A DNA stretch of 64,000 nt from an uncultured Phycisphaerales bacterium (GTDB lineage Bacteria; Planctomycetota; B15-G4): NCBI GenBank assembly GCA_964537035.1, contig CAZIAK010000020.1, positions 19,297 through 83,296 on the forward strand. Reading direction: 5' to 3'. Below are positions 15,801 through 42,050 of this stretch, piece by piece. The notes below the pieces were generated by a model. That model searched no databases. It had not been told where the DNA came from and saw only the letters and a list, made by a program, of their open reading frames with translations. How positions within the stretch are numbered: position 1 is the stretch's first letter; each line of letters starts with the position of its first letter. The position numbers were made by a program, and so were the translations under genes.

Positions 15801-16922
15801 ATGGCTGACCACACCGAGTTCAAGAACCACGACCTCGACCCCAACCTGTCGTTCGAGGGCGTGCTCTACGATGAGCAACCCCTGCGCGATCCGTCTGGCA
15901 ACGAGGTGGACGGCCTGCACGTGGTGCGCATCACGCTCGACAACCCCAAGCAGTACAACTCGTACACCACCACCATGGTGAAGGGCGTGATCTTCGGCAT
16001 GCGCCGGGCCAGCAACGACCGCGGCTGCGTGGCGGTGATCTTCACCGGCTCGGGCAGCAAGGCCTTCTGCACCGGCGGCAACACCGCCGAGTACGCCGAG
16101 TACTACGCCGGGCGGCCCGAGGAGTACCGGCAGTACATGCGCCTGTTCAACGACATGGTCACGGCCATCCTGCACTGTGACAAGCCGGTGATCTGCCGGG
16201 TCAACGGCATGCGCATCGCGGGTGGGCAAGAGATCGGCATGGCCTGCGACTTCACCGTGGCCAGCGACCTCGCGATTTTTGGTCAGGCGGGACCGCGCCA
16301 CGGCTCGGCACCCGACGGCGGCAGCACCGACTTCCTGCCCCTCTTCGTGGGCATCGAGGCGGCCATGGAGAGCTGCACCCTCTGCGAAAACTGGACCGCC
16401 CACAAGGCCAAGCGCCTGGGCCTGATCAGCGCCATCGCGCCGGCGCTGAAGATCGACGGCCAGTTCGTCCCCAACCCCTTGGTCGTCACCGACCAGATGC
16501 TCGATGAGTGCGGCAACCTAGTGCATGGCGAGAGTCGCACGGGTGACGAACTCGCTGCCGCAAAGGCCCTGCTCAAGTCGGGCGAGGTCGATCTCTCGCT
16601 GCTCGACGAAGCGGTCGACGAGCTGATCTGGAAGCTGGCCAATACCATGCCCGGCTGTCTGTCCAAGACCCTGGAGAGCGTGCGCAAGCACAAGCTGGCT
16701 CAGTGGGATCGCAATCGTGAGACCAACCGGGCCTGGCTCGGCCTGAACATGATGACCGAGGGCCGCACGGGCTTCCGAGCCTTCCACGAAGGGAACCGCG
16801 CCTGTCGCGAGGCGGACTTCCTGCTGCTGCGCCAGCGCCTGGCCGAGGGTGCGGTCTGGGGCGAAGCGCTGGTGGACGACGTGCTGGCCCGGGCCCACGG
16901 CAAGGAGCCCCAGCCCGCCTGA
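15801..16922 (+). CDS. oah: 6-oxocyclohex-1-ene-1-carbonyl-CoA hydrolase (ring-cleaving crotonase; Oah/BamA type)
   Basis: 373 aa, which is oversized for a crotonase, as Oah/BamA is. It has the crotonase core VIFTGSGSKAFCTGGN...RVNGMRIAGGQEIGMACDF and starts 3 bp after the had stop. Confidence 0.85.
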   Translation: MADHTEFKNHDLDPNLSFEGVLYDEQPLRDPSGNEVDGLHVVRITLDNPKQYNSYTTTMVKGVIFGMRRASNDRGCVAVIFTGSGSKAFCTGGNTAEYAEYYAGRPEEYRQYMRLFNDMVTAILHCDKPVICRVNGMRIAGGQEIGMACDFTVASDLAIFGQAGPRHGSAPDGGSTDFLPLFVGIEAAMESCTLCENWTAHKAKRLGLISAIAPALKIDGQFVPNPLVVTDQMLDECGNLVHGESRTGDELAAAKALLKSGEVDLSLLDEAVDELIWKLANTMPGCLSKTLESVRKHKLAQWDRNRETNRAWLGLNMMTEGRTGFRAFHEGNRACREADFLLLRQRLAEGAVWGEALVDDVLARAHGKEPQPA

Positions 16923-16969
16923 ACTCTCGCCCTTCCGAAATCTCGCCCTCCTGACCTCCCGAGACGACC

Positions 16970-17755
16970 ATGACCAGCGAGACCGCCAGCCCCAGCTCAG
17001 TGCGCCATGAAGTCCTTCACGATGGAGCGGTGTGGCGCATCGTCCTCGATTCGCCGCCAGCCAACATCCTCGATGGCGAGAAGATCACGGCGCTCAACGC
17101 GTTGTTCGAGCGGGCAGCCACCGAGGGCAAGCTGAAGGCGGTTCTGATCGCGGCGGAAGGCAAGCACTTCTGCTTCGGTGCCAGCGTCGAAGAGCACCTG
17201 CCTGGCAGCTGCGCGGACATGCTCGCGGGGCTGCACAAGCTCTTCGAGGTCATGCTCCAGGCCGCCGTCCCCACGGTGGTCGCGGTGCGCGGCCAATGCC
17301 TGGGAGCGGGCCTGGAGCTGGCGGCCTTCTGCCACCGGGTGGTGGCCTCCCCCACGGCGAAGTTCGGCCAGCCCGAGATCGTCCTGGGGGTCTTCGCGCC
17401 AGTGGCCTCGGTGGTGCTCCCCGGTCGGGTCGGTCGCGGACTCGCCGAGGACATGCTGCTCAGCGGTCGCAGCCTGGACGCCGAGAGCGCGCGGGCCGCG
17501 GGGCTGGCAGACGAGCTCGCCGACGACCCGGGCGCCGCAGCCCTGGCCTACATCGAGGAGCATCTGCTGCCCAAGTCTGCCAGCAGCCTGCGCCTCGCCT
17601 CCCGAGCCGCGCGACTCGACTTTCAACGTCGCTTCGTCGCTGACATCCGCGAGCTTGAGCGCCTCTACCTCGACCAGCTCATGGCCACCAGCGATGCCAA
17701 CGAGGGGCTGAACGCCTTCATCGAAAAACGTCCACCCGTCTGGAGCGACTCATGA
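16970..17755 (+). CDS. dch: cyclohexa-1,5-diene-1-carbonyl-CoA hydratase (enoyl-CoA hydratase/crotonase family)
   Basis: 261 aa with the crotonase pattern KHFCFGASVEEH...VRGQCLGAGLELAAFCH. Its stop overlaps the bcrC start (ATGA at 17752-17755). Confidence 0.8.
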   Translation: MTSETASPSSVRHEVLHDGAVWRIVLDSPPANILDGEKITALNALFERAATEGKLKAVLIAAEGKHFCFGASVEEHLPGSCADMLAGLHKLFEVMLQAAVPTVVAVRGQCLGAGLELAAFCHRVVASPTAKFGQPEIVLGVFAPVASVVLPGRVGRGLAEDMLLSGRSLDAESARAAGLADELADDPGAAALAYIEEHLLPKSASSLRLASRAARLDFQRRFVADIRELERLYLDQLMATSDANEGLNAFIEKRPPVWSDS

Positions 17756-18921
17756 CAGCCGCCGCAGTGTCCACGCTCATCTCCCGGGCCGAAGAACTGG
17801 TTCGCGACGACAAACTCGCCAGCGTGCAAGCCTGGAAGGATCGCACCGGTGGGCTGGCCATGGGCTTCATGCCCGTGTACGCCCCCCGGGAACTGCTGGC
17901 CGCCCAGGGTGTGCTGCCCGTGGGCATCGTGGGCAACGGTGACCTGGAGATCATTCGCGGCGACGCGTTCTTTCAGTCGTACATCTGCCACATCCCCCGC
18001 AGCACGATCGAGATGGGCCTGAACGGCAGCCTCGATTGCCTCGACGGGATGATCTTCCCCGCCACCTGCGACGTGATCCGCAACCTGTCGGGCATGTGGA
18101 AGATGCGTTTCCCTGACAAGCTCTCCCGCTACCTCGATGTCCCGCAGGACTTCAATCACGAGATCGGCGGGTCGTTCTACCGCATGGAGCTCGAGAGCCT
18201 CAGCGACGAGTTGACCTCCCGAGGAGCCAGGCCCTACGACAAGGACGCCTTGCGCGAGGCCATCGCCGAATACAACGTGCAGCGAGGACTCATCCGCGAG
18301 CTCTACGCCCTGCGTCGCGACCAACCCTGGAAGATCCCCACCGCTGAACTCTACTGGATCTTGCGCGCCTGCCTGCTGCTTCCCGTAGACGAACAGATCC
18401 AGTGGTTGACCGAGTTCAGAGACACCGCCCTGGCAGACGACGAACGCAAGCCCATGGACCAGGCCCGGGTGCTGCTCACCGGGTCGTTCTGCGAGCAGCC
18501 CCCCATCGGCCTGATCAAGACCCTGGAGCGCAGCGGCTGCTACATCGTCGACGACGATCTCTGTCAGGTGCATCGTTGGATTCCCCAGGACATCAGCACC
18601 GAGGGTGACCCTCTCGACGCCCTGGTCACCGCCTTTCTGGACGACGGCGTGGCCAGCCCCATCCGCTACATCGACAAGGAACCCAAGGGCGAGGCCCTGG
18701 TCCGCCGGGTGGCGGAGAGCAAGGCCGAGGGTGTGCTGTTCTGCGCGCCCAGCTTCTGCGACCCGGCCCTGCTCGACCAACCCATGGCCGTCGCCGCCAT
18801 CGAGAAGGCCAACATCCCCTGGACAGGCTTCAAGTACTCCGAGAACAACGGGCAGTTCCAGGTCATACGCGAGCAGGCCGGCACCTTCGCCGACTCGATC
18901 AAGCTGTGGAGTGAAGCATGA
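17752..18921 (+). CDS. bcrC: benzoyl-CoA reductase (class I, ATP-dependent) subunit C; HgdB/BcrC family
   Basis: 389 aa in the 2-hydroxyacyl-CoA dehydratase D-component-like family. Size and position match the first gene of Thauera bcrCBAD / Rhodopseudomonas badDEFG. ATGA overlaps occur on both sides. Confidence 0.85.
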   Translation: MTAAAVSTLISRAEELVRDDKLASVQAWKDRTGGLAMGFMPVYAPRELLAAQGVLPVGIVGNGDLEIIRGDAFFQSYICHIPRSTIEMGLNGSLDCLDGMIFPATCDVIRNLSGMWKMRFPDKLSRYLDVPQDFNHEIGGSFYRMELESLSDELTSRGARPYDKDALREAIAEYNVQRGLIRELYALRRDQPWKIPTAELYWILRACLLLPVDEQIQWLTEFRDTALADDERKPMDQARVLLTGSFCEQPPIGLIKTLERSGCYIVDDDLCQVHRWIPQDISTEGDPLDALVTAFLDDGVASPIRYIDKEPKGEALVRRVAESKAEGVLFCAPSFCDPALLDQPMAVAAIEKANIPWTGFKYSENNGQFQVIREQAGTFADSIKLWSEA

Positions 18922-20222
18922 GCACCACCGATACAGACAACGCCGTCCACAAGGACAGCAGCCAGATTCGCCAGAAGGAGATGCTCGCCGATCACTACGG
19001 CAAGCTGGCAAACTCACCGGAGACCGGCGCCAAGTGCGTGTACACCTTCGTGCCAGGCAACCTGACCGAGCTGGTGCGCAGCTTCGATCTGCTGCCCGTG
19101 CTGCCCGAGATCAACGCCTTGCAGAGCGCCATGCGCGGCAAGACCGGGGCCTATATCAACCACGCTGAGAAGCTCGGGCACAGCGAAGATGTGTGCACCT
19201 ACGTCAAGGCCGATGTGGGCATGCTCAAGAACGGCAACATCGGCCCCACGGGCGAGCACCTTCCCGACCCGGACCTGCTGCTGCTCTCGTACACCGGCTG
19301 CTTCACCTTCATGAAGTGGTTCGAGATCCTGAAGCAAGAGTACGACTGCCCGGTGGTCATGCTGCACACGCCCTACCAGGGTGACGGTGAGATCACCGAC
19401 TCCATGCGTGACTACGTGGTCAAGCAACTGAAGGAGAAGGTCATCCCCGCCTTGGAGAAGGTCTCGGGCAAGTCCTATGACGAGGACCGCTTGAAAGAGA
19501 TGCTCGGTCACTCGGCCGTGGCCGAAGACGACCTGGTGGCGGTGCTGCAGTCGGCCAAGCACAAGCCCTCTCCCATCGACGCCTACTTCGGCGGGGTCTA
19601 CTACATCGGCCCCATGTTCACCGCCTTCAGAGGCACCGAAGAGGCCGTGGGCTACTACAAGGCCCTGCGCGCCGAGGTCGAAGAGCGCATGGCCCTGGGC
19701 CTCGGGCCGGTGACTCCCGACGGCAAGACCACCGCAGAGAAGTACCGCATCGTCGTCGAGGGCCCCCCAAACTGGACCGACTTCAGGACCTTCTGGCGCA
19801 TGTTCTCTGACGAAGGCGCGGTCTCCGTGGCCAGCACCTACACCAAGGTCGGCGGCACCTACGACTTCGGCTTCCGCCACGACCCGGCCCGCCCTCTCGA
19901 GAGCCTGGCCGAGTACTGCATGGGCTGCTACACGAACCTCAACCTGCCCAGCCGGGTCGACATGCTCTGCAACTACATCGAGGAGTATCAGGCCGACGGC
20001 CTGCTGATCAACTCGGTGAAGAGCTGCAACTCGTTCAGCGCGGGCCAGCTGATGATCCTGCGCGAGGTCGAGAACCGCACGGGTGTTCCCGGAGGGTTCA
20101 TCGAGAGCGACCTCGTCGACCCCCGCTACTTCTCGGCGGCCAACATCAAGAATCGCCTGGAGTCGTACTTCCAGATGATTGAACAGAAGCGGTCCAGCCC
20201 GGCGTTGGGAGCGATGGGATGA
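18918..20222 (+). CDS. bcrB: benzoyl-CoA reductase subunit B; HgdA/BcrB family
   Basis: 434 aa, paralogous family to bcrC, second position in the four-gene block, translationally coupled (ATGA overlaps at 18918 and 20219). Confidence 0.85.
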
Positions 20223-21541
20223 AATACTGCGTAGGCATCGACCTGGGCTCGACCACCACCAAGGCGGTCGTCCTCGACGAAGAGGGCAACGTGCTGGGCC
20301 AGGGCATCACCAATAGCCGCAGCAACTATGAGGTCGCCTGCGAGGTGGCCCTGGGCGAGGCGCTGATCAGGGCCCGCTTCGGCATGATGGAAGCTCGGCT
20401 CGGAGACCTTGACAGCGAGACCCGCGCCGAGCTTCTTGGCGAGCTCGAGCGGCTCTTTCGGGCCGAGCAGTACAGCGAGCAGCTGGCGATGTTCGGCAAG
20501 GTCGTCCGACGCCTGGCAGACGAGAACAAGGCAGACCCTCAGATCTCCGAGGCCCTGACGGCCATCACTTCATCCATGCAAGACGAGGTGGGTGACCTGT
20601 TCGCTCCCGGCGCCTCACGCAAGAGCGACTTCTTTCGAGACCTGGCCGGCAGCCGCTTCCTGAAGGAAGCCGAGGGCATCGCCCGCCGCGGCGAAGTCAG
20701 CTTCGATGGACTCGTCGGGCTCTTCGACAAGGCCATCCTGGAAGCCGAGAACTGCCCGCCCAGCGCCGCCTTCGAAGACCACGCCCGCTCTGCCTTGACC
20801 ACCATGACCAAGCCCCCCGCTGAGCTGGAAGCCGCGGTGGAGTACATCTCAAAGCTCCCGTTGGAGCAGGCCGTCAGCGTGGGCACGGGCTACGGGCGGG
20901 CGACCCTGCCCTTCGAGAAGGACTGCATCCGTTCAGAGATTCTCTGCCACGGCCTGGGCGCCCACGCCATGTTCCCGGGCACCCGCACCGTGCTCGACAT
21001 CGGCGGACAGGACACCAAGGCCATCCAGGTCGATGACCGGGGCATCGTCACCAGCTTCCAGATGAATGACCGCTGCGCTGCCGGCTGTGGACGCTATCTC
21101 GGCTACATCGCCGACGAGATGAACCTGGGCCTTCACGAACTGGGCCCCATGGCCTGCAGCGCCAAGCGCACGGTGAAGATCAACTCGACCTGCACGGTGT
21201 TCGCTGGCGCCGAGTTGCGCGAGCGGCTCTCCCTGGGCGAGAAGCGCGAGGACATCCTGGCCGGATTGCACCGGGCCATCGTGCTCAGGGCCATGTCCTT
21301 GCTGGCTCGCTCCGGCGGCGTGCACGACGAGTTCACCTTCACCGGAGGGGTGGCCAAGAACCCCGCTGCAGTCGGCGCGCTCGAGAAGCTCATCGGCGAG
21401 AACTACGGCGAGCGGACGATCAACATCTCTCCCGATTCGATCTACACCGGCGCCCTCGGAGCGGCCCTCTTCGCCTGGCGCGACTGGACAGCGCGCATGA
21501 GCGCAGCGGATGAGCCTGCCCTGGCTGAAAGGAACAACTGA
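20219..21541 (+). CDS. bcrA: benzoyl-CoA reductase subunit A (BcrAD/BadFG-type ATPase with a long helical insertion)
   Basis: 440 aa with an N-terminal ASKHA phosphate-1 motif ([17 protein letters not shown]). [10 protein letters not shown] and [12 protein letters not shown] carry the cluster-ligand Cys context. Size matches Thauera BcrA. Confidence 0.88.
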
Positions 21542-22404
21542 TGACTGACGCCACATCTGCAGCAGACGCCCCCCTGGTCGCGGGTATCGACGTGGGCAGC
21601 TCCGCCGTCAAGGTGGTCTTCATGCGCGTCCCCCGAGACGGGCACCCCGAGATGCTGCTGGGTCGCCGGGAGCGCATCCGCCGCCGTGATCCCCAAGAGG
21701 TGGTGGCGGGGTTGTATCAGACGTGCCTCGACGAACTCGATCTGTCCAACGACGACCTGACCTACGTGGCCACCACGGGCGAAGGCGAGCTGGTCCCCTT
21801 TCGCACCGGGCACTTCTACGGCATGACCACCCACGCCCGGGGCGGCCTCTTCCTCGACCCCGAGGCCAGGGCGATCATCGACATCGGTGCGCTCCACGCC
21901 CGGGCGGTGATGATGGACGAGCGCAGCAAGGTGCTCGGCTATCGCATGACCAGCCAGTGCGCCAGCGGCTCCGGCCAGTTCTTGGAGAACATCTGCCGCT
22001 ACCTGGGCATCACCATCGACGAGATCGGACCGCTCTCGCTCGCAGCGGACAAGCCCGAGTCCTGCTCGTCGATCTGCGCCGTGCTCGCCGAGACCGACGT
22101 GATCAACATGGTCTCCAGGGGCATCACCGCGCCGAACATCGTCAAGGGCATCCACCAGTCCATGGCCGGGCGCTATCTCAAGCTGGCCACGTCGCTCGGT
22201 GTCACAGGCGTGGTGCTGATCACCGGCGGCCTGTCGTCTGACGAGGGGCTGCTGGCGGCCATGTCCGAGCTCTCTGAGGAGCAAGGCGCTGGCATCGAAG
22301 TGCGCGCCCACGCCGACTCCGTGTTGGCCGGTGCCATCGGCGCCGCCATCTGGGGAGCCTTCCGGGCGAGCAAGCTGGCAGCCAAAGGTGTGGCCCTGGT
22401 CTGA
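21541..22404 (+). CDS. bcrD: benzoyl-CoA reductase subunit D (BcrAD/BadFG-type ATPase)
   Basis: 287 aa with VAGIDVGSSAVKVVFM, DIGALHARAV and TSQCASGSGQFLE. The start overlaps the bcrA stop by 1 nt (TGATG). Confidence 0.88.
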   Translation: MTDATSAADAPLVAGIDVGSSAVKVVFMRVPRDGHPEMLLGRRERIRRRDPQEVVAGLYQTCLDELDLSNDDLTYVATTGEGELVPFRTGHFYGMTTHARGGLFLDPEARAIIDIGALHARAVMMDERSKVLGYRMTSQCASGSGQFLENICRYLGITIDEIGPLSLAADKPESCSSICAVLAETDVINMVSRGITAPNIVKGIHQSMAGRYLKLATSLGVTGVVLITGGLSSDEGLLAAMSELSEEQGAGIEVRAHADSVLAGAIGAAIWGAFRASKLAAKGVALV

Positions 22405-22413
22405 GTTGTCACC

Positions 22414-23175
22414 ATGACCGATCCAGCGACCCTACTCTCACTGCACGACCGTGTGGCCTTGGTCACCGGGGCCTCCGGCGGCATCGGTCGTGCCGTAGTG
22501 GCCCAGCTCTCTGAAGCTGGCGCCACCGTAGTGGCTACCGACCTGCAGCCCCACGACGACCACGACGGCGACTTCATCCCCTGCGAGCTCACCACTCCCG
22601 GTGCGGTGGGCGAGCTGGTCGACACCGTTGAGCGACGTCATGGGCGCCTCGACATGGTCGTGCATTGCGCGGGCATCACCCGCGACCGGGTGCTCTGGAA
22701 GCTGAGCGATGCCGACTGGGACGATGTCCTGTCGGTCAACCTGGGCACGGCCTTTCGGCTCTTGCGCCGGGTCACGCCGCTCATGCGTGCGACCACCGAG
22801 GCCGACGGCGCCGCTGGGCGCTTGGCGGACGGCTCCGTGGTGCTGGTGACCTCGATCAACGGTGAGCGAGGAAAGTTCGGGCAGGCCAACTACGCCGCCA
22901 GCAAGGCCGGGCTCATCGGCCTGGGCCGCACGGCAGCGAAGGAACTGGGCCGCTTCTCCGTACGCGTGAACCTGTTGGCTCCGGGGCTCATCGAGACGGC
23001 CATGACCGCCGAGCTTCCCGACGCCGCCCGCGCCGCCGCCCTGGCCGAGACAGCCCTGAATCGCTTCGGCCAGCCTGAAGACGTGGCCCGTTCCATTCTC
23101 TTCCTGGTCAGCGATCTGGCCCGCCACGTCACCGGACAGGTGCTCCGGGTGGACGGCGGCCAGCTCATGGCCTGA
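22414..23175 (+). CDS. short-chain dehydrogenase/reductase (FabG-like 3-oxoacyl reductase family)
   Basis: 253 aa with TGASGGIGRAV (cofactor motif), NYAASKAGLIGL (YxxxK) and a C-terminal GQVLRVDGG. Starts 9 bp after bcrD. Confidence 0.9.
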   Translation: MTDPATLLSLHDRVALVTGASGGIGRAVVAQLSEAGATVVATDLQPHDDHDGDFIPCELTTPGAVGELVDTVERRHGRLDMVVHCAGITRDRVLWKLSDADWDDVLSVNLGTAFRLLRRVTPLMRATTEADGAAGRLADGSVVLVTSINGERGKFGQANYAASKAGLIGLGRTAAKELGRFSVRVNLLAPGLIETAMTAELPDAARAAALAETALNRFGQPEDVARSILFLVSDLARHVTGQVLRVDGGQLMA

Positions 23176-31937: not shown

Positions 31938-33701
<1,764 letters not shown>

Positions 33702-33949
33702 GTGTCGATCCGGGGCGTCCCGGCCTCCTGCGATGCGTGTCTTTGAGCCTGCGAAACAGAAGCCTGAGTCTCGCAAACGAGTCCCCGGAAAGGACAGGGG
33801 AAAGCGCGCCCCGCACCGAGCGAGACCCCACCCAGCTCCAATCCGCTACACTCACTGGCTCAGGGACCTCCCAGGAGCAGGTCTGAGCGCCTCGCTCCCC
33901 GAGAATGGTTGCTGTTCACATCCCGATCACTTCAACAAGGGAGAAGATC

Positions 33950-34918
33950 ATGCTGTCTGTCGTCCTGGCTGGAGCCCTCGCTCTGGCAGCCGCTCCCCCG
34001 GCGGACAAGATCGTGCCCGCCCAAGGGGACCCCGCGCCCAATTTCGGTGGCACCTGGATGGGCTACGAAGACTCATCCCTCGCCCAGCTGCAAGGCAAGG
34101 TCGTCTTCATCGAATTTTGGCGAACCTGGTGAGGCCCCTGCACATCGCAGGTCCCCCATCTCAATGAGCTCTGGAAGAAGTATCGAGATCGGGGTCTTGT
34201 CGTCGTTGGCGTGACCAACGAACCCAAATCACTGGTCGAGAAGGCCATCCAGAAGAAGCACATGAAGTTCCCCGTGGCCATGGTCAAGACCAACGAGGAG
34301 CAGCCCTTCGCCATCCGCGGATTCCCCACTTCGTTTCTTGTGGACGTGGACGGGACCATTCTCTGGAAGGGTCATCCAGGCACCTTCGACAGCCAGTTTG
34401 GCACCAAGCGACTCGAGACCTACCTGGCCAAGACCGTGTCGCTCCCCAGCCTGCCTGACGACTACATCAAGTCGGTGGCCAAGCACGTCGAGAAGCGCGC
34501 CTATGGCAAGGCCCACAGCACCATTCTCAAGGCCATGGAGCGTGACCCGGAGAACGAGTCGCTGAAGACCTACGTCGAGAAGATCGAGAGCATCGTCGAG
34601 TTCAAGATCGCAGTCGCAGATGAGTTCCTCGACGACGGTGAGTACGGCCGGGCCATGGCCGTCTATGAACAGCTGCTCAGCCAGTTTCCAGGCGTGCCTG
34701 GTGCTGAGCTGGCCAAGCAGTCGGCGGCAGATCTGAAGAGCAACAAGGAAGCCCGAGACGAGCTGGCCGCCACAGAGAAGTGGAACTCCGTCATGAAAGA
34801 CTGGCGCAAGGGCAAGTTCGACAAGGCCTTGAGCGGCGTGCGCTCCATCGCCAAGAAGTACAGCTCGACGCCCACGGGCAAACGGGCAGACGAGATGGTC
34901 TACCGACACGACGGCTGA
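33950..34918 (+). CDS. TlpA/ResA-like periplasmic thiol:disulfide oxidoreductase with a probable selenocysteine (U-G-P-C) active site and a C-terminal TPR-like helical domain; in-frame TGA at 34130-34132
   Basis: ORFs 33905-34132 and 34211-34918 are in the same frame, and the frame stays open across 34133-34210. The read-through product reads KVVFIEFWRTW-[TGA]-GPCTSQVPHLNELWKKYRDRGLVVVGV, i.e. the WCGPC thioredoxin motif with TGA at the first Cys. ATG 33950 is preceded by GGGAGAAG and followed by a signal peptide (MLSVVLAGALALAAA). Confidence 0.7.
34148..34199 (+). promoter_or_regulatory. candidate SECIS-like hairpin 16 nt downstream of the in-frame UGA
   Basis: Imperfect inverted repeat caggtcccccatctc (34148-34162) / gagatcggggtcttg (34185-34199). 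By hand it gives 12 Watson-Crick pairs, 1 G-U pair and 2 mismatches. The apical region contains CUCUGGAAGAAG with a GG at 34173-34174. Confidence 0.35.
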
Positions 34919-34949: not shown

Positions 34950-34991
34950 GCCGCCGCCCTCTCCCCCGGGAGAGGACGGCGGCTGTCTTTC
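34950..34991 (+). terminator. Rho-independent terminator-like hairpin after the TlpA-like gene
   Basis: GCCGCCGCCCTCTCCC-CC-GGGAGAGGACGGCGGC forms a stem of about 16 bp with one mismatch, followed by TGTCTTTC. It lies 31 nt after the stop at 34918. Confidence 0.6.
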
Positions 34992-35237: not shown

Positions 35238-35864
35238 ATGGTGAATAGTCTTGCGTGCCGAGAACGCCCCGTGTCCACGAGAACGCGAGCTACACGAACC
35301 AACGATCTGGCCCTGCGCTGCCAGGCACTGCTGCAGGCTGTCAGAGACGGGCAAGACGACGCCTGGGCGAACATGCTCGACGAGTTCGGCGGGCTGGTGT
35401 TCTCAGTGGCTCACGACGCCGGCCTCCGGGGCGCGGACGCAGAAGACGCCTACCAGACCACCTGGCTGGCTCTCCATCGCTCCCTGCCCAGCATTCGAGA
35501 ACCAGGCGCCCTGGTGGCCTGGATCAGCACCACGGCCCGCAGAGAATCGTGGCGGCTGTCCAAACGACGCCGGGGCCAGACCGACCTCGAGCCTTTCCTG
35601 GAGCAGGCCGCCGATCAGACAGTCGACGCCAACCCCCTCGATGAAATGCAGCGCCTTGAGCAGCAGCAAGCTGTCCGCCAGGGCCTGGCCACCCTCGACG
35701 AACGGTGCCAAGACCTGCTGAACCGACTGTTCTTCGCGCCCGAATCCCCTCGCTACGAAGACGTGGCCACAGCCATGAAGATGAAGACAGGCAGCGTGGG
35801 ACCGACCCGCATTCGCTGCCTCTCGAAGCTGGCCCACTGGCTCGAAACCAATGGCTCGCCCTGA
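35238..35864 (+). CDS. ECF-type RNA polymerase sigma factor (sigma-70 family, regions 2 and 4)
   Basis: 208 aa. Region 2-like: FGGLVFSVAHDAGLRGADAEDAYQTTWLALHRSL. Region 4-like HTH: YEDVATAMKMKTGSVGPTRIRCLSKL. Confidence 0.9.
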   Translation: MVNSLACRERPVSTRTRATRTNDLALRCQALLQAVRDGQDDAWANMLDEFGGLVFSVAHDAGLRGADAEDAYQTTWLALHRSLPSIREPGALVAWISTTARRESWRLSKRRRGQTDLEPFLEQAADQTVDANPLDEMQRLEQQQAVRQGLATLDERCQDLLNRLFFAPESPRYEDVATAMKMKTGSVGPTRIRCLSKLAHWLETNGSP

Positions 35865-35968
35865 GCTGATCTGAGAACCTTGTATCGCCAGGGGGCCTGC
35901 CTCCTCCTGCAGGCACACAGGTCGTCCATGCACCCAGCCGGTGCGTCCCCATTCCAGAGGTCGAGATC

Positions 35969-36652
35969 ATGAGCTGCCCGCCCTTCGAGGCGCTCCTCGC
36001 CTGGCGTTCAGGCCAGGACATCAGCGCTCATGATGCTCCCTCCGAGGCGGCTACCACGCCGGAAGACGAGGCCATCACCGCCGTCAACGGTCACCTGCAA
36101 GGCGGCTGCCCCGGCTGCCGTCGGCGGCTGCAGTTGCTCGACCAGCTGCTGATCAGCCTGAACGAGCCCGCACCGCCCATGGTCCCGGCGGCCTTGCGAC
36201 GACGGGTTCTCGATCAACTGCACGCCCTGCCCCAGGAGGGCTCCTCCGCCGCAGGGGCCGGCCCGTTGGGCAGGCTGGTAGGCCAACTGCAGGAGTTCAT
36301 CGCCGAGCTGGTCCAGCCCCTGGGCAGCCAGGCCCTGGCGGCCGGCCTCCGTGGCGAGAACGACCCAGCCCTGCACCGGTTTCGAGCCGGTGACTACCTG
36401 CTCGACGTGGGGCTCGTAGAACGTCGGGCCGTCCTGGGCCAGCTGCTCGATCAAGATGGCCTCGACGCCGAAGACTTCGACGGCGCCGCGGCCATCCTCT
36501 GCGGAGCCGACGGCTCCCAGCAGGCGAGCCTCGATGAAGACGGTGCCTTCCGCTTCGATCGCACGGGACCGGGCCGCTTCGCCTTGCTCATCGAATCCCC
36601 CACTGTGCGACTGGTCTTCCCCGACATCGACCTGACCGCGCCAGGAGACTGA
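35969..36652 (+). CDS. putative soluble anti-sigma factor (zf-HC2-like N-terminus, no transmembrane segment)
   Basis: 227 aa with Cys3 plus HLQGGCPGC (H-x4-C-x2-C) near the N-terminus, immediately downstream of the ECF sigma. No hydrophobic span long enough for a TM helix. Confidence 0.65.
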   Translation: MSCPPFEALLAWRSGQDISAHDAPSEAATTPEDEAITAVNGHLQGGCPGCRRRLQLLDQLLISLNEPAPPMVPAALRRRVLDQLHALPQEGSSAAGAGPLGRLVGQLQEFIAELVQPLGSQALAAGLRGENDPALHRFRAGDYLLDVGLVERRAVLGQLLDQDGLDAEDFDGAAAILCGADGSQQASLDEDGAFRFDRTGPGRFALLIESPTVRLVFPDIDLTAPGD

Positions 36653-36834
36653 CCCTGTCGCCCGCGGACGACAGCCTCGGCGCGGAGCAGCGCTGGTTCG
36701 AGCAGCTCCTTGACAAGCCCGAACCTCAGACCTGGAAGGCCTACGACGACGCAGGGCCAGAGCTGCGCAGCGACGTCGTCCTGCTGCTGAAGGGCAAGGT
36801 CGATGGCCTCTGCCGCAATGCGCCACCCGAGGCC

Positions 36835-39534
36835 TTGCCCGTAGCAGACGTCCTGGTGCGTGCTGCCAGCCAGCTGCCCGAGCTACTACCCCTGGCCCTG
36901 CGCGGCCGGGCCGCCGCCGCCCACTTCAACGGCCAAGAAGACACCGCCCGCCGGGACTTCGAACGGTCGTCCCGGCTCTACGAAGAGCAGGGCCTCCCCG
37001 TGGAGTCGGCCAAGGCCCTGCGCAGTCTTGTCGACGTGCACCAGATGGTCGGACGCACAGACGAAGCGCTGAGATGCGCCGAACGGGCCGAAGAGATCTT
37101 CGCCGCCCACAACGAAGACCGCCTGCTGGCTCAGCTGCACCTGAACGTGGGCAACGTCTACACCCGCATCGACGACTACACCGCCGCAGACCGCTTCTAC
37201 AGCTCGGCGAGAGAGACCTTCGCCACCCTGCAAGACGAGCTGGGCCTGGCCTTCTGCGACTTCAACCTGGCGGTGGTGGCCATGAACGCCAACCGCTGCG
37301 ACGACGCCGAGCGCTCCTGGCGCACCGCGCGCGACGGCATGGGCCAGGCGGGCATGGGCATGCTGGTCGCCGATTGTGACTACAACCTGGCCTACCTGGA
37401 GAGCCGCCGGGGACGGTTCGAACGAGCCATCGACGGGCTGACCCGGGCTCGTCTGGCCTACCTCGAGAACGGCAAGCCGTCAGGGCCCCCGCTCTGCGAC
37501 CTCGATCTGGCGGAGATCCAGCTGCGACTCGGCACGGTGCGAGACGCCTCCCGTCATGCAGCTGCGGCCGCGGAGGCCTTTCAGACCCTCGAGATGAACT
37601 ACGAGCTGGCTCGGGCCGAAGTGCTCGGGGGCATCGCCAGCGCCAGGCTCTCAGACAGCGAATCTGCGTGGCGGCTGCTCACCAGCGCCGAAGAGCGCTT
37701 CGAGCAACAGGGCAACGTGGCCTTCGCCGCCTTCGTCGCCCTGCAAAAGGCTCAGATCGAAGTGCAGCGAGGTCGTGCTGCAGCGGTGATAGACCAGCTG
37801 ACCCGGAGTCGGGCGGCCCTGCTAGGCAAGGGCATGATCTGGCTCGCAGACCTGGCCGGCCTGACCCTCTGTCGAGCGCTGCTGCGTGCCGACCGTCCCC
37901 ATGAGGCATTGGCCCAGGTGACCGAACTGGTTGAGCAACGCCCTGAGGGCAGCACCCTCGACGGACTGCTCCAGGCCATCGCCCTGCGGCTCAGCGCCGA
38001 CGCCCTGTCAGCTGCAGGCGATCAGCAAGGGGCCCTGTCTGCCCTGGAACAGGCAGTCTCCACCATCGATGCCACCTGGTCCCAGGTGCCGAGCGGCGAC
38101 GTGCGCATCGCCTTCTTCCGCGATCAGCACCCGGCCTTCGTCGATCTCACCTACCTGCTGCTCGATGTGCAGCGTACCCACGACGCGTTGCTGACCTTCG
38201 AGCGGGGACGGTCCCGCAGTCTGCTCGAATCGGCGCCCCTGGAGCGCGACCCGGCCTGGACGAGAGCCCGGGAGCACCTCGACTGGCTCCTGGCCCGTCA
38301 ACTCGATGCCGAGCTGGGGCCCTTGGCCGGTGGCACCGAGCTGCGCCCCGAACGAGACCTGGCCACGGGCTGGTCCGAACAGATCACCCAGGCCCGTGAA
38401 CAGCTGGCCCACCTCTCGGCGGCTGCCACGGCGACAGCGTCGAAGCTCCACCCAGCCCTCCACCTCGACGCACACCAGCTGCTCGCTGCGCGCCAGGGCG
38501 ACGAGTTGCTCCTGGTCTACCTGTCCGGGCCCAGAGGTGTGCGCGTCCTGGTCATCGACGATGACAACAACGGCGGCTTCACCGTGGACGCCGTCGACCT
38601 GCATCAGCCCGAAGCGAAGATCGCGGCCCTCCGCGACAAGCTGTTGTTTCAGCTCTCCCGCCGAGTGGTCGAGGGGGACGACGCCCGGGGGCTCCACAGC
38701 GCCCTGGCCAAGCTGGGCAGCCGGCTGCTGGGCCCCATCTCCGATCGCCTTCAGGGTGCGCAGGGACCCCGGCCCCTGGTCATCGTGCCCTATGGTTCCC
38801 TGCACGACCTGCCCATGCATGCCTTTGAGCTCGATGGCGCTCCCCTGGCCGCCCGCCACGACGTCACCCAGGGCATCAGCGTGTGGCACCTGGCCAAGCT
38901 GAGGGCCCGCGGCGCCCCGCCAACCCAGCGGGCCCTGGGTTGGACCGTCGGAGCGTCCCTCGGGGCCCTGCCGGCCATCGACCGGGAGCTCGCCGATCTG
39001 AGCCAGACCTTCGGCGGCCGGCTGCAGACCCTGTCCCCCGATCAGCTGCTGGGGGCCCTTCACGAGGGGGCACTCGACGGTCAGCTGCTGCATATCGCGA
39101 GCCACGGACGCTTCGAGCGGGAGCGGCCCCGATTCAGCGCCATCTGCCTGGGCCAGAGATTCTTGATGGCCCACGATCTGGCCTCCATGACCTTCGATAT
39201 CGACCTGGTGACCCTCAGCGGCTGCGAAACGGGCCGCAAGCGCCCCACGGGCGGAGACGAGCTCATGGGCCTCTCCAGGGCCCTTCTCGGCGCCGGAGCC
39301 CGGGCCGTGCTGGGCAGCCTGTGGCCCGTCAGGGACGACACCACGGCCCAGTTCATGCAGGCCTTCTATACCGCCTATGCCTCCGGAATGAGCGCCAGCC
39401 GCTCCCTCACCCATGCAAGACGGTCTATGCTTGGGCAGACGAATGACCCCGTCTCCTGGGCGGCCTTCTCCCTGCTGGGCGACCCCGACGTCTCCATCGC
39501 CCCGCCAAGTGCCTCTCACCTCTGCGCTGGATAG
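36835..39534 (+). CDS. TPR-repeat CHAT-domain protein (caspase-like protease fold); the N-terminus probably extends upstream of the listed TTG start
   Basis: 899 aa with an N-terminal two-thirds of TPR-like helices. The C-terminal CHAT domain has an intact His/Cys dyad context: LHIASHGRF (His codon 39103-39105) and LVTLSGCETG (Cys codon 39223-39225). The frame is open and coding-like from 36538. Confidence 0.9.
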   Translation: MPVADVLVRAASQLPELLPLALRGRAAAAHFNGQEDTARRDFERSSRLYEEQGLPVESAKALRSLVDVHQMVGRTDEALRCAERAEEIFAAHNEDRLLAQLHLNVGNVYTRIDDYTAADRFYSSARETFATLQDELGLAFCDFNLAVVAMNANRCDDAERSWRTARDGMGQAGMGMLVADCDYNLAYLESRRGRFERAIDGLTRARLAYLENGKPSGPPLCDLDLAEIQLRLGTVRDASRHAAAAAEAFQTLEMNYELARAEVLGGIASARLSDSESAWRLLTSAEERFEQQGNVAFAAFVALQKAQIEVQRGRAAAVIDQLTRSRAALLGKGMIWLADLAGLTLCRALLRADRPHEALAQVTELVEQRPEGSTLDGLLQAIALRLSADALSAAGDQQGALSALEQAVSTIDATWSQVPSGDVRIAFFRDQHPAFVDLTYLLLDVQRTHDALLTFERGRSRSLLESAPLERDPAWTRAREHLDWLLARQLDAELGPLAGGTELRPERDLATGWSEQITQAREQLAHLSAAATATASKLHPALHLDAHQLLAARQGDELLLVYLSGPRGVRVLVIDDDNNGGFTVDAVDLHQPEAKIAALRDKLLFQLSRRVVEGDDARGLHSALAKLGSRLLGPISDRLQGAQGPRPLVIVPYGSLHDLPMHAFELDGAPLAARHDVTQGISVWHLAKLRARGAPPTQRALGWTVGASLGALPAIDRELADLSQTFGGRLQTLSPDQLLGALHEGALDGQLLHIASHGRFERERPRFSAICLGQRFLMAHDLASMTFDIDLVTLSGCETGRKRPTGGDELMGLSRALLGAGARAVLGSLWPVRDDTTAQFMQAFYTAYASGMSASRSLTHARRSMLGQTNDPVSWAAFSLLGDPDVSIAPPSASHLCAG

Positions 39535-39539
39535 AACCC

Positions 39540-40979
39540 ATGTCTTTCCCATCCTTTGCACACGCCTCGCTCTCTTGCGACGAGAAGGGTGCGCGGCGTC
39601 AGCTGTCCGCGACCCTGCTGAGCGGCCTCTTCCTCGCCCTGGTCTCGGCCCCTCTCTCGGCCCAGACCACCGCCACCCGAGCGGCGGCCTCTGGAACCCA
39701 GCCGGGCAACGCCTTCGCTCGCGGCGGCACCGTCGATGAGCCGGTCCGGATCTCCCTGGTCTCGTCGTCAGACGATGTGATGAACCAGCTCACACAGTTT
39801 CCGGTGACGCTGCTCAAGGGTTCGATTCGCACGAACTCCTATCTGGTCGAAGCCCTCCCTGGCACCAGCGGCACCGTGCTCGACGACCTCCTCGATGATC
39901 TGGCGCAGCTGCCCGGCATGCTCGTCGCCGAGATCGACCTGCCCGTGTTCACCCACGAGATCGACAGCTGCATCGACGACGGCATGGGCGGCACCACACA
40001 GGTCGGCGCTCAGCAGTGCACCGTGGCCTTCGTGGACGGCACGCCCACACCTCCCGAATACTTCGCCCAGACCGCCCTCGAACAGATCGACGCGGCCAAC
40101 GCCCAGCTGATCATGACCACCTACACTCCTGTGGTGGCGGTGATCGACACGGGGCTCGACATGTCCCACAACATCTTCGCCGGGCGCCTGGCCTCTGCAG
40201 GTTGGGACTTCGTGGCGGGCCGACCCCGTGCCTGGGACCTTCCCGACGGCGTCGACAATGACGGCGACGGTCTCATCGATGAGGCCTACGGTCACGGCAC
40301 ACACATCGCGGGGACGGTCCTGGCGGTGGCTCCCGAGGCCTTGATCCTGCCGGTGAGAGTGCTCGACGCTGAAGGCAACGGCAGCGCCTACGACGTGGCC
40401 AGCGGCATCTTCTGGGCCGTGGCGAACGGTGCCGACGTGATCAACCTGAGTCTCAGCATGACGACGGTCTCCAACACCGTCGCCGGCGCGCTGCAGTTCG
40501 CCGAAGCCAACAACGTGGCGGTCTTCACCTCGGCGGGCAACACCGGCAAGGACGTCTTGTTTCCCGGCACCTACGACCCGGCCACGATCAACTACGTGCT
40601 GCCCGGGCTCGAAGGCGTCCCCCTCGACGGCGCCGAGATCGTGACCGTTGCGGCAGTCGATGACATGGACATCAAGGCCCTGTTCAGCGCCTGGGGTCTC
40701 GAGGTCGACGTGAGCGCGCCGGGCGTGGCGGTCTACTCTGCCCTGCCAGCCAACCAGTACGGATGGTGGAGCGGCACCTCCATGGCCACAGCCGTGGCCT
40801 CTGGCGTGGGGGCGCTCACCGTGGGCATCGCCGGTCCCTTCCCGGCCAGCTCACCGGCTCAACTGGTCATCGAACAGTCCCTGCCCATCGACGACCTCAA
40901 CCCCATGACCCCCGGCGGGCTGGGCGCGGGCCGCACGGACGCCCTGGCCTCAGCCTTGGCCGCGGTTCAGGGTCTCTAG
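39540..40979 (+). CDS. secreted S8-family (subtilisin-like) serine peptidase
   Basis: 479 aa with a signal segment (LLSGLFLALVSAPLSAQ). Catalytic triad motifs: VAVIDTGLD, HGTHIAGTV, GTSMATAVASG. Starts 5 bp after the CHAT stop. Confidence 0.92.
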   Translation: MSFPSFAHASLSCDEKGARRQLSATLLSGLFLALVSAPLSAQTTATRAAASGTQPGNAFARGGTVDEPVRISLVSSSDDVMNQLTQFPVTLLKGSIRTNSYLVEALPGTSGTVLDDLLDDLAQLPGMLVAEIDLPVFTHEIDSCIDDGMGGTTQVGAQQCTVAFVDGTPTPPEYFAQTALEQIDAANAQLIMTTYTPVVAVIDTGLDMSHNIFAGRLASAGWDFVAGRPRAWDLPDGVDNDGDGLIDEAYGHGTHIAGTVLAVAPEALILPVRVLDAEGNGSAYDVASGIFWAVANGADVINLSLSMTTVSNTVAGALQFAEANNVAVFTSAGNTGKDVLFPGTYDPATINYVLPGLEGVPLDGAEIVTVAAVDDMDIKALFSAWGLEVDVSAPGVAVYSALPANQYGWWSGTSMATAVASGVGALTVGIAGPFPASSPAQLVIEQSLPIDDLNPMTPGGLGAGRTDALASALAAVQGL

Positions 40980-40985
40980 AACTCC

Positions 40986-42050
40986 GTGACCCTCTGCCCT
41001 GCTGGCTCGATGTCGAGCACCCTGTCTCGCCTGCTGGCTTGCTGCGTTCTCGGTCAGCTCTCCGGGTGCGCGGCGCCCGCAACAGAGTGTGCGCAACTGG
41101 CCACCCTTCCAAGGTCCCAGCTGACCGAAGCCCAGGCGCCTGACCAGACCGCTGGCCCGGGCGCAGCACCGCTGGCAACAGAAGCCGCCATCCGGGCCGC
41201 CCAGGGCATCGACCCGGCCACCGCTCTTGAGCACGTCGAGTTGCTGGCCTCTGACGCACTGGCCGGGCGCTGGGCACGGAGCGCCGAGGCACGGGTGGCG
41301 GCCCGCTACATCGCCGACCACTTCGCAGAGGCAGGGCTCACACCGATCGGAGACGACAACGATTGGTGGCAGCCGCTCGGGGACGAAGAGCTGGCGCCGA
41401 ATGTGGTGGGCATGCTCCCCGGGCAAGGCGATGACTGGGTGGTCGTCGGTGCCCACTACGATCACCTTCGTCCCCGAGGCCGGGGCGACGACCGCATCTT
41501 CAACGGCGCCGACGACAACGCCAGCGGCGTGGCGGGGCTGCTTGAAATCGTGGCCGCCTTCGCTGAGCTGCCCGATCCCAACGGGGCCTCCATCGTCTTC
41601 ATCGCCTTCACCGGCGAAGAGCTGGGATTGCTTGGCTCGCGCCACTTCGTCGACCACCCTCCCCTGCCCCTCGAGCGGTTGCGGGCGGTGGTGAACCTGG
41701 ACATGATCAGCCGCGGTGAGCCCGGGCTGATCTTCTGCGAAGGCGGCGCCCGCTCGCCCTGGTTGCGCTCTCTGACAGACCGGGCCAACACCCGGGTGGG
41801 GCTGACCATTCGCCACGACGAGCATCCCGACTGGATCTCTGGCAGCGATCACTTCCCCTTCATGCAGAAGGGCGTGCCCACGCTCTACTTCGGCGTCGAA
41901 GACCATGCCGACTATCACCGGGTGAGCGACCACGCCGATCGGGTCCTGCCCGGGCTCATCGCTGACGTGGCCAGGCTGTCCTTCTGGATCCTGCTCGACG
42001 CCGCCAACAGCGGGCCAGGCGAGGCCGTCTCGGGGCAGCCCGCAAACTGA
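40986..42050 (+). CDS. M28-family metallopeptidase, probable lipoprotein
   Basis: Motifs VVGAHYDHL, NGADDNASGVAGLLEI and AFTGEELGLLGSRHF. Lipobox-like LGQLSGC. ATG 41010 (MSSTLSRLL) is an alternative start. Begins 6 bp after the S8 stop. Confidence 0.88.
   Translation: MTLCPAGSMSSTLSRLLACCVLGQLSGCAAPATECAQLATLPRSQLTEAQAPDQTAGPGAAPLATEAAIRAAQGIDPATALEHVELLASDALAGRWARSAEARVAARYIADHFAEAGLTPIGDDNDWWQPLGDEELAPNVVGMLPGQGDDWVVVGAHYDHLRPRGRGDDRIFNGADDNASGVAGLLEIVAAFAELPDPNGASIVFIAFTGEELGLLGSRHFVDHPPLPLERLRAVVNLDMISRGEPGLIFCEGGARSPWLRSLTDRANTRVGLTIRHDEHPDWISGSDHFPFMQKGVPTLYFGVEDHADYHRVSDHADRVLPGLIADVARLSFWILLDAANSGPGEAVSGQPAN

Follow-up and report, generated by a model that had tools for sequence, protein, structure and literature searches.

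Does a TGA codon that falls in frame on the active site of a thioredoxin-like gene end the protein, or is it translated, and if it is translated, what signals the change of meaning? The locus that raises this question lies at positions 33,950 to 34,918 of a 64,000-nucleotide (nt) stretch of contig CAZIAK010000020.1 from an uncultured Phycisphaerales bacterium; the whole stretch is called the window here, and coordinates are its own unless another sequence is named. An earlier reading of these letters without database searches (the sequence-only reading) had proposed selenocysteine (Sec) at the TGA, and this interpretation is supported by conservation of the TGA column among relatives, by Cys at the same column in uninterrupted homologues, and by a covarying RNA structure downstream. 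From these comparisons we hold with high confidence that the UGA at 34130-34132 is read as Sec. The joint proposal, that the gene encodes a selenoprotein and that two adjacent hairpins 3′ of the UGA, named A and B below, form its recoding signal, is very likely.

A gene split at its active site

Two open reading frames (ORFs), 33905-34132 and 34211-34918, share one frame; the 78 nt between them (34133-34210) are open and the sole stop is the TGA at 34130-34132, exactly as had been described from the letters. Joined from ATG 33950, the product has 322 amino acids with the TGA as codon 61, and reads ...GKVVFIEFWRTW*GPCTSQVPHLNELWKKYRDRGLVVVGVTNE... The residues around the UGA are FIEFWRTW-U-GPC, and the peptide spanning codon 61 would be TW-U-GPCTSQVPHLNELWK. 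The TGA stands on the first Cys position of a WCGPC-type motif (W-U-G-P-C, residues 60-64), again in agreement with the sequence-only reading. ATG 33950, and not 33905, is the start position common to orthologues. The gene and its signals are as follows:

33937..33943, + strand: Shine-Dalgarno-like AAGGGAG, seen in the sequence 6 nt 5′ of ATG 33950, with a presumed function
33950..34918, + strand: predicted complete gene for a selenoprotein, 322 codons with UGA-61 counted, one TGA inside the frame and the terminal stop TGA at 34916-34918
34130..34141, + strand: active-site motif U-G-P-C (TGA GGC CCC TGC), with the proposed Sec codon TGA at 34130-34132
34950-34983, unstranded: perfect GC-rich palindromic hairpin of 15 base pairs (bp), found in a consensus scan 32 nt past the stop and terminator-like on both strands

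Since a terminator-like hairpin follows the stop, the gene looks monocistronic. TGA terminates 29/38 window genes, the selenoprotein gene included; it is thus an ordinary stop here, and the codon would be recoded locally, with no reassignment of the genetic code.

Conservation of the TGA across relatives

A protein search recovered nine close relatives (49-100% identity), all called as products of ~235-249 residues that cover the last three quarters of the query. On the contigs of these relatives, a small ORF upstream always stops with TGA at this same column (W-TGA-G-P-C) and shares the frame of the gene downstream, so the calls are truncated; the splitting of a selenoprotein gene by ORF calling, suspected in the window, is borne out both there and among its relatives. 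Further loci came from scanning metagenomes and one genome per species. TGA is present at the identical column in 27/27 distinct orthologous sequences, which have 32-88% identity to the window, with zero frameshifts and zero further stops, and the protein is conserved on both sides of the TGA. TGA also occupies this column in three sequences of distant subfamilies (FFAHW-TGA-PPC, FFAFW-TGA-VPC and VFRTW-TGA-GPC...VGHL), and amino-acid identity among TGA carriers, including the UGPC, UPPC and UVPC subfamilies, reaches down to about 27-32%. The same TGA column in 27 orthologues and three distant sequences is therefore not due to chance. Record titles of the orthologues are mostly those of Planctomycetota metagenome-assembled genomes (MAGs). 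Two labels differ from the rest, each probably through a binning or naming error: a 77%-identical orthologue (L013) belongs to a MAG whose title reads Pseudohongiellaceae, and P0006 is labelled ‘Chlamydiales bacterium’ in one source, its contig JBLHKW010000013.1 (L002/L012) being titled Planctomycetota.

Uninterrupted homologues have Cys at the column, as FWRTWCPAC in P0011, WCGPC in P0012 and L033, and WCPPC in P0013; P0047, a full-length homologue with both domains, likewise has Cys (VWRTWCGPC). Both states that the sequence-only reading had anticipated, Cys in homologues and TGA in the orthologues of other genomes, thus align at exactly this position. A profile of the C-terminal part of the protein matched 657 representative clusters at E <= 1e-10, and among the best 150 of these 657 representatives, 114 start just after the active-site position, the signature of a TGA-truncated call, 14 are full length with CxxC and 21 are full length with a degenerate motif.

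These comparisons bear on the alternative that had been set beside Sec from the start, a pseudogene arising from a recent TGC/TGT-to-TGA nonsense mutation, and likewise on a sequencing or assembly error. Gene callers do split the gene, and Sec machinery was not observed in the window or in related loci, both of which would suit a broken or misread gene. The conservation of TGA across orthologues and subfamilies contradicts this account, however. The codon is found in >30 independent assemblies from different samples and lineages, over the full span of identity given above; decay of the orthologues, named beforehand as a sign of a pseudogene, was looked for and neither frameshifts nor extra stops were found; synonymous variation goes together with amino-acid conservation on both sides of the codon; and the same truncation recurs in the 114 representatives just described. 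A pseudogene or an error is extremely improbable.

Two adjacent hairpins downstream of the UGA

The consensus for the bacterial selenocysteine insertion sequence (bSECIS; SECIS in general) comprises an apical loop of 3-9 nt with G within its two leading positions, an upper stem of 4-16 bp, a minimum free energy (MFE) of at most -7.5 kcal/mol and a distance of 16-37 nt from the UGA to the apical loop, and in E. coli a minimal SECIS of 19 bases is enough for SelB to bind. The mRNA downstream of the UGA contains two hairpins:

34147..34200, + strand: hairpin A, a long irregular stem-loop of ~55 nt, with its base 14 nt and its apical loop 40 nt after the UGA
34203..34221, + strand: hairpin B, UCGUUGG-CGUGA-CCAACGA, 19 nt, with 7 bp, a 5-nt loop containing GU, and a folding free energy (dG) of -8.2 kcal/mol; candidate SelB-binding SECIS core

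Independent MFE folds gave one architecture in 26/27 orthologues, namely a spacer of 11-14 nt, hairpin A, and then hairpin B 0-2 nt later. Hairpin B, whose loop lies 77 nt after the UGA, is identical in sequence in 26/27 orthologues, and RNAalifold with 26 sequences predicts it as a local hairpin. The six codons GTC GTT GGC GTG ACC AAC (34202-34219) show 100% identity at their third positions, compared with 35-92% elsewhere, setting aside single-codon Trp and UGA. In 23 orthologues, these six hairpin-B codons are the only conserved degenerate columns of the gene at which a single codon is used. Two positions of the loop are synonymous sites, yet they are invariant. Because one partner of each stem pair is fixed by the amino acid, the stem cannot covary within the subfamily.

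The invariant block also holds an in-frame GUG (34211), chosen as a start by gene callers. If the UGA were a true stop, the locus would yield an exported peptide of 60 residues and, by re-initiation at this GUG in the loop of hairpin B, a separate C-terminal protein. Residues 62-87, encoded between the TGA and the GUG, are nevertheless among the most conserved, and it is they that complete the CxxC motif and helix 1; a product begun at the GUG would have no active site and only half of a thioredoxin fold, and the remnant of that fold is modelled with a predicted local distance difference test score (pLDDT) below 50 over residues 1-40. No Shine-Dalgarno-like motif is present 5′ of GUG 34211. 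Translation as two products is accordingly very improbable.

In hairpin A, the apical stem varies in sequence among the orthologue folds while pairing persists. Across the downstream structure, 77% of cells pair, compared with 31-49% with a slid partner, and the covariation score is 0.160, compared with <=0.089 for slid partners, a value that 0/500 shuffles reach; the covariation and the slid-partner controls support hairpin A. Synonymous recoding with codons drawn from the same gene gave a mean z of -3.4, with 25/25 sequences negative, compared with -0.43 in control regions. The apical loop of hairpin A lies 37-42 nt after the UGA across the family and 40 nt after it in the window. Its sequence varies (GGGA, GCAG, GUAC, ACGA, CCA, AAGAA and 8-nt loops); G is found within its two leading positions in ~22/26 sequences, often as GGNA, and four lack G.

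The downstream element foreseen by the sequence-only reading is therefore there in part: a conserved, covarying structure follows the UGA, but canonical bSECIS spacing does not hold. A short hairpin directly after the UGA (CCUGC-ACAUC-GCAGG, 34137-34151) was considered as a SECIS and is not conserved in the orthologues. RNAalifold had suggested that the UGA flank pairs with the invariant block, and this pairing was also rejected; it explains 2/6 invariant synonymous sites, and GGC/GGG variation after the UGA is uncompensated. Neither the gathering threshold nor E <= 10 yielded an Rfam family for the element. Looking elsewhere for hairpins with a CGUGA loop gave one 7-bp match (L015 17087-17105, - strand, CGUCGCG-CGUGA-CGCGACG) with no preceding in-frame TGA, and we treat it as a chance match; it is located near the 5′ end of a membrane-protein ORF.

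Natural controls for hairpin B

Divergent members of the family differ in whether they can form hairpin B. The Cys homologue L034 (P0013) encodes the peptide GLVVVGVTNE via GTC GTC GTG GGC GTC ACG AAC GAG and cannot form the hairpin. L031 (W-TGA-SPC) keeps the peptide with codons, GTG GTG GGC GTG..., that break hairpin B, and it has a proximal canonical hairpin, AUGGCCC-AGGU-GGGUCAU (L031 3151-3190), with the loop 16 nt after the UGA. L036 is also without hairpin B and has the canonical hairpin CCAGGUG-GGA-CACCUGG (L036 9980-10020), with the loop 21 nt after the UGA. Both L031 and L036 represent Sec subfamilies with Q-V-G-H-L after the motif, and both use a canonical proximal SECIS; with hairpin B missing from both, the SECIS has evidently been remodelled between two architectures within one protein family.

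Two further subfamilies retain hairpin B. In the UPPC subfamily (L040, GLSIVGVTSE) it is kept as UCGUUGG-CGUGA-CCAGCGA, with U-A changed to U.G. In the UVPC subfamily (L043/L044, GLSIIGVTNE) the codons are ATC ATT GGC GTG ACC AAT GA, a compensatory change of G-C to A-U that leaves the loop unchanged. This change had been predicted before the UVPC subfamily was inspected, in that a Val-to-Ile substitution (GUU to AUU) should be accompanied by a change of AAC to AAU, and it was found in L043. Every unpaired cell of the hairpin-B stem belongs to the controls L031, L036 and L034. The pattern is that hairpin B is present in the absence of a proximal canonical SECIS and degraded where a proximal SECIS or a Cys codon exists. 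P0207 and P0208 (VPHLDEL...VLAVTDE) could be an exception: from their sequences they are expected to be without a G-rich proximal loop (CCN instead of GGA) and without hairpin B.

How the two hairpins could direct selenocysteine insertion

It is likely that hairpins A and B act as the recoding signal. In the mechanism that we propose, the UGA would be read by Sec-tRNA(Sec) delivered by SelB, and not by release factor 2, and the signal would be the conserved mRNA structure immediately 3′ of the UGA, consisting of the spacer, hairpin A and hairpin B. Hairpin A would remain folded outside the ribosomal mRNA entrance, where it could serve as a looped-out spacer and bring hairpin B to the site normally taken by a canonical minimal SECIS. 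The base of hairpin A falls at the expected start of a minimal SECIS, so hairpin B would be presented at the canonical place if A stays folded. Given that the gene encodes a selenoprotein, hairpin B is favoured as the SelB site at slightly better than even odds, because it has all the other consensus features, its 19 nt are like those of the minimal E. coli SECIS, and its loop is invariant whereas that of hairpin A varies. For the reading as a whole, in which hairpin B is a natural distal SECIS bound by SelB via the invariant CGUGA loop 77 nt from the UGA and hairpin A is a looped-out spacer, we put the probability at about 0.5.

A different division of labour would keep the same selenoprotein and treat hairpin A alone as a slightly over-long canonical SECIS, with SelB binding its apical G-rich loop and hairpin B accessory, through stacking on A or ribosome pausing. 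The A loop lies just past the 16-37 nt range, G stands within its two leading positions in most sequences, the loop resembles the GGA loop of the proximal SECIS of L036, and covariation is far greater in A than in B. Yet the sequence of the A loop is unconserved, including the four cases without G, and the loop of hairpin B is invariant across three subfamilies even at its two synonymous sites. Hairpin B moreover has all the bSECIS features but spacing, with its 7-bp stem, GU at positions 2-3 of the 5-nt loop and a dG beyond the consensus limit, and an accessory role leaves unexplained why B is lost exactly where a proximal SECIS is present. We consider hairpin A alone as the SECIS possible but doubtful.

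Several observations weigh against a distal SECIS at hairpin B or against Sec insertion as such. Neither hairpin falls within the bSECIS spacing of 16-37 nt, the A loop lying at 37-42 nt and the B loop at 77 nt. The window’s own hairpin A is the weakest of 25 in synonymous recoding (z = -1.3), and an 80-nt fold around the UGA is no better than shuffles (z = -0.09). Covariation in hairpin B consists of one compensatory and one wobble event, and 35/500 shuffles reach the observed value, so it is supportive, not conclusive. Sec machinery was sought in the window and across 443 kb of related loci without success: ARAGORN detected no tRNA-Sec in the window and 31 loci, none of 40 window proteins scanned with Pfam had a SelA, SelB or SelD domain, and tblastn with approximate E. 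coli SelA/SelB/SelD queries gave no match. A scan for coding ORFs split by TGA in the window and all loci returned this gene alone, so these sequences offer no second selenoprotein gene that could show a SelB preference.

The machinery not being seen in these loci and the non-canonical form of the SECIS would also suit recoding of the UGA to a residue other than Sec, either Cys, via a tRNA-Sec-like molecule or allo-tRNA with a SelB-like factor, or Trp or Gly, via structure-stimulated near-cognate read-through. However, the position is the nucleophilic Cys of CxxC, the classic site of Sec/Cys exchange, and UxxC TlpA-like and Redoxin selenoproteins are already catalogued. Trp or Gly would leave the enzyme inactive, but purifying selection on the motif and fold is strong, and a Cys codon is a simpler route to Cys that relatives do use. 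Recoding to another residue is therefore very improbable. Some planctomycetes possess complete selA/B/C/D sets, and one planctomycete genome was reported to carry a pair of split ‘thiol-disulfide isomerase-like thioredoxin’ candidates in which bSECISearch detected no SECIS. That outcome is what a non-canonical SECIS would produce, and the two genes may belong to the present family.

Protein domains and likely function

The architecture put forward by the sequence-only reading, a product of ~322 residues with a signal peptide, U61-G-P-C64 and a TPR-like domain at the C terminus, holds, the N-terminal signal being hydrophobic and the C-terminal domain helical:

33950..34009, + strand: predicted N-terminal hydrophobic export signal MLSVVLAGALALAAAPPADK, from the short M-(K/R)-hydrophobic-AxA N-termini of orthologues
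34022..34369, + strand: thioredoxin-fold (Redoxin/AhpC-TSA, TlpA-like) domain, residues 25-140, with PF00578 and PF08534 above gathering scores
34457..34915, + strand: predicted C-terminal all-helical TPR-like domain, residues ~170-322, with AlphaFold2 helices at pLDDT ~90

With U replaced by C, residues 25-140 match both AhpC-TSA (PF00578, 64.7 bits, cut-off 26) and Redoxin (PF08534, 59.7 bits, cut-off 26.6) in Pfam, and the active site is of the W-C-x-x-C type at the start of helix 1. The AlphaFold2 model covers the C-terminal 235 residues alone (P0001). TPR-type matches to the C-terminal domain were weak in Foldseek searches of the PDB (best E 0.18), and Pfam TPR_14 scored 22.3 bits, under the cut-off of 23.5.

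Scores against the NCBIfam models for ResA, TlpA and DsbE lie below their cut-offs (92 vs 170, 43.6 vs 230 and 38.7 vs 123, respectively), and no selenoprotein-specific NCBIfam model reached its cut-off. NF041054 (WAxxUGC ResA-like) scored 33.7 against a cut-off of 300, the motif here being WRTWUGPC, and NF041382 (VPGUxxT thioredoxin-like selenoprotein type 1) scored 24.9 against 350, with a differing active-site motif; these two and the present family are all thioredoxin-like selenoproteins. Residues 173-315 (34466-34894) weakly match positions 195-341 of NF041382 (E 1e-5, far below the cut-off), and the two families may share an accessory C-terminal domain.

Family resemblance suggests that the protein is likely a periplasmic selenol/thiol reductase. 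The first domain would be a TlpA-like thioredoxin fold with Sec (U61 in U-G-P-C) as the nucleophilic active-site residue, and the second, helical and TPR-like, probably binds a partner or substrate. In the periplasm, the selenolate/thiol pair would reduce disulfides, and possibly peroxides or sulfenates, in partner proteins, much as TlpA/ResA-type reductases do.

Relation to known selenoproteins and SECIS elements

Catalogued UxxC selenoproteins include a TlpA-like ‘thiol-disulfide isomerase-like’ family (cd02966) and a ‘Redoxin family’ (PF08534) from marine metagenomes, as well as a ‘Prx-like thiol:disulfide oxidoreductase’ (PF00578). The present family resembles these in its Redoxin/AhpC-TSA fold, in Sec replacing the first Cys of CxxC, in its widespread Cys homologues and in the splitting of the gene by annotation; it differs in an extra C-terminal helical TPR-like domain of ~150 residues and a non-canonical SECIS, though it may coincide with one of those families. 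With ResA, TlpA and CcmG(DsbE) it shares an exported thioredoxin fold and a W-C/U-x-x-C motif, and the best NCBIfam similarity is to the ResA subfamily. Unlike those proteins it has no cytochrome-maturation or copper-chaperone gene context, and it has the extra C-terminal domain and Sec in place of Cys. The selenoprotein itself is a further UxxC TlpA-like selenoprotein, here in Planctomycetota, mis-annotated in the ordinary way; what is new is the recoding element with its two hairpins, the additional domain and how large the unannotated family is.

Like a canonical SECIS of the E. coli fdhF type, the element is a coding-region stem-loop 3′ of the UGA, in which hairpin B has a loop, stem and MFE within the consensus. 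Unlike that type, it has two adjacent hairpins and a linear spacing outside 16-37 nt, whereas the relatives L031 and L036 fall within this range. The minimal fdhF SECIS is said to have a spacer of 11 nt, which the base of hairpin A, 11-14 nt after the UGA, resembles. A distal SECIS engineered into the 3′ untranslated region in E. coli reportedly works when base pairing brings it near the UGA, and mostly Trp is said to be inserted with it. The concept behind that engineered element matches the model in which hairpin A brings B into place; here the arrangement is natural, intragenic and conserved.

The family is systematically annotated as a 60-residue ‘hypothetical’ protein plus a truncated protein of ~235-260 residues. 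Once the Sec codon is recognized, the active site is restored and Planctomycetota selenoproteomes gain an exported selenoenzyme. If hairpin B is the SelB site, a bacterial SECIS may sit outside 16-37 nt when a structured spacer bridges the gap, spacing-based search tools would miss real selenoproteins, and the resulting design rule could relax sequence constraints for engineered Sec insertion in recombinant proteins. As a distal SECIS, hairpin B would define a new architectural class common to hundreds of unannotated TlpA-like selenoprotein genes, and would explain why tools report ‘no SECIS’ for them. The natural contrasts within one family, with A+B, proximal SECIS and Cys forms, make the question tractable.

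Genomic neighbourhood

Neighbouring genes differ among the orthologous loci. In the window, the adjoining upstream gene (31938-33776, - strand) encodes an isocitrate/isopropylmalate dehydrogenase that carries two CBS domains fused at its C terminus (612 amino acids). Downstream (35238-42050, + strand) are genes for an extracytoplasmic function (ECF)-type sigma factor, a possible anti-sigma factor (no Pfam hit), a TPR+CHAT protein, a subtilase and an M28 peptidase, which are not conserved beside orthologues. Farther upstream (15801-23175, + strand) is a cluster that resembles anaerobic acyl-CoA/aromatic metabolism loci, with two HGD-D proteins (2-hydroxyacyl-CoA dehydratase/benzoyl-CoA reductase-like), two BcrAD_BadFG ATPases, two enoyl-CoA hydratases and one short-chain dehydrogenase.

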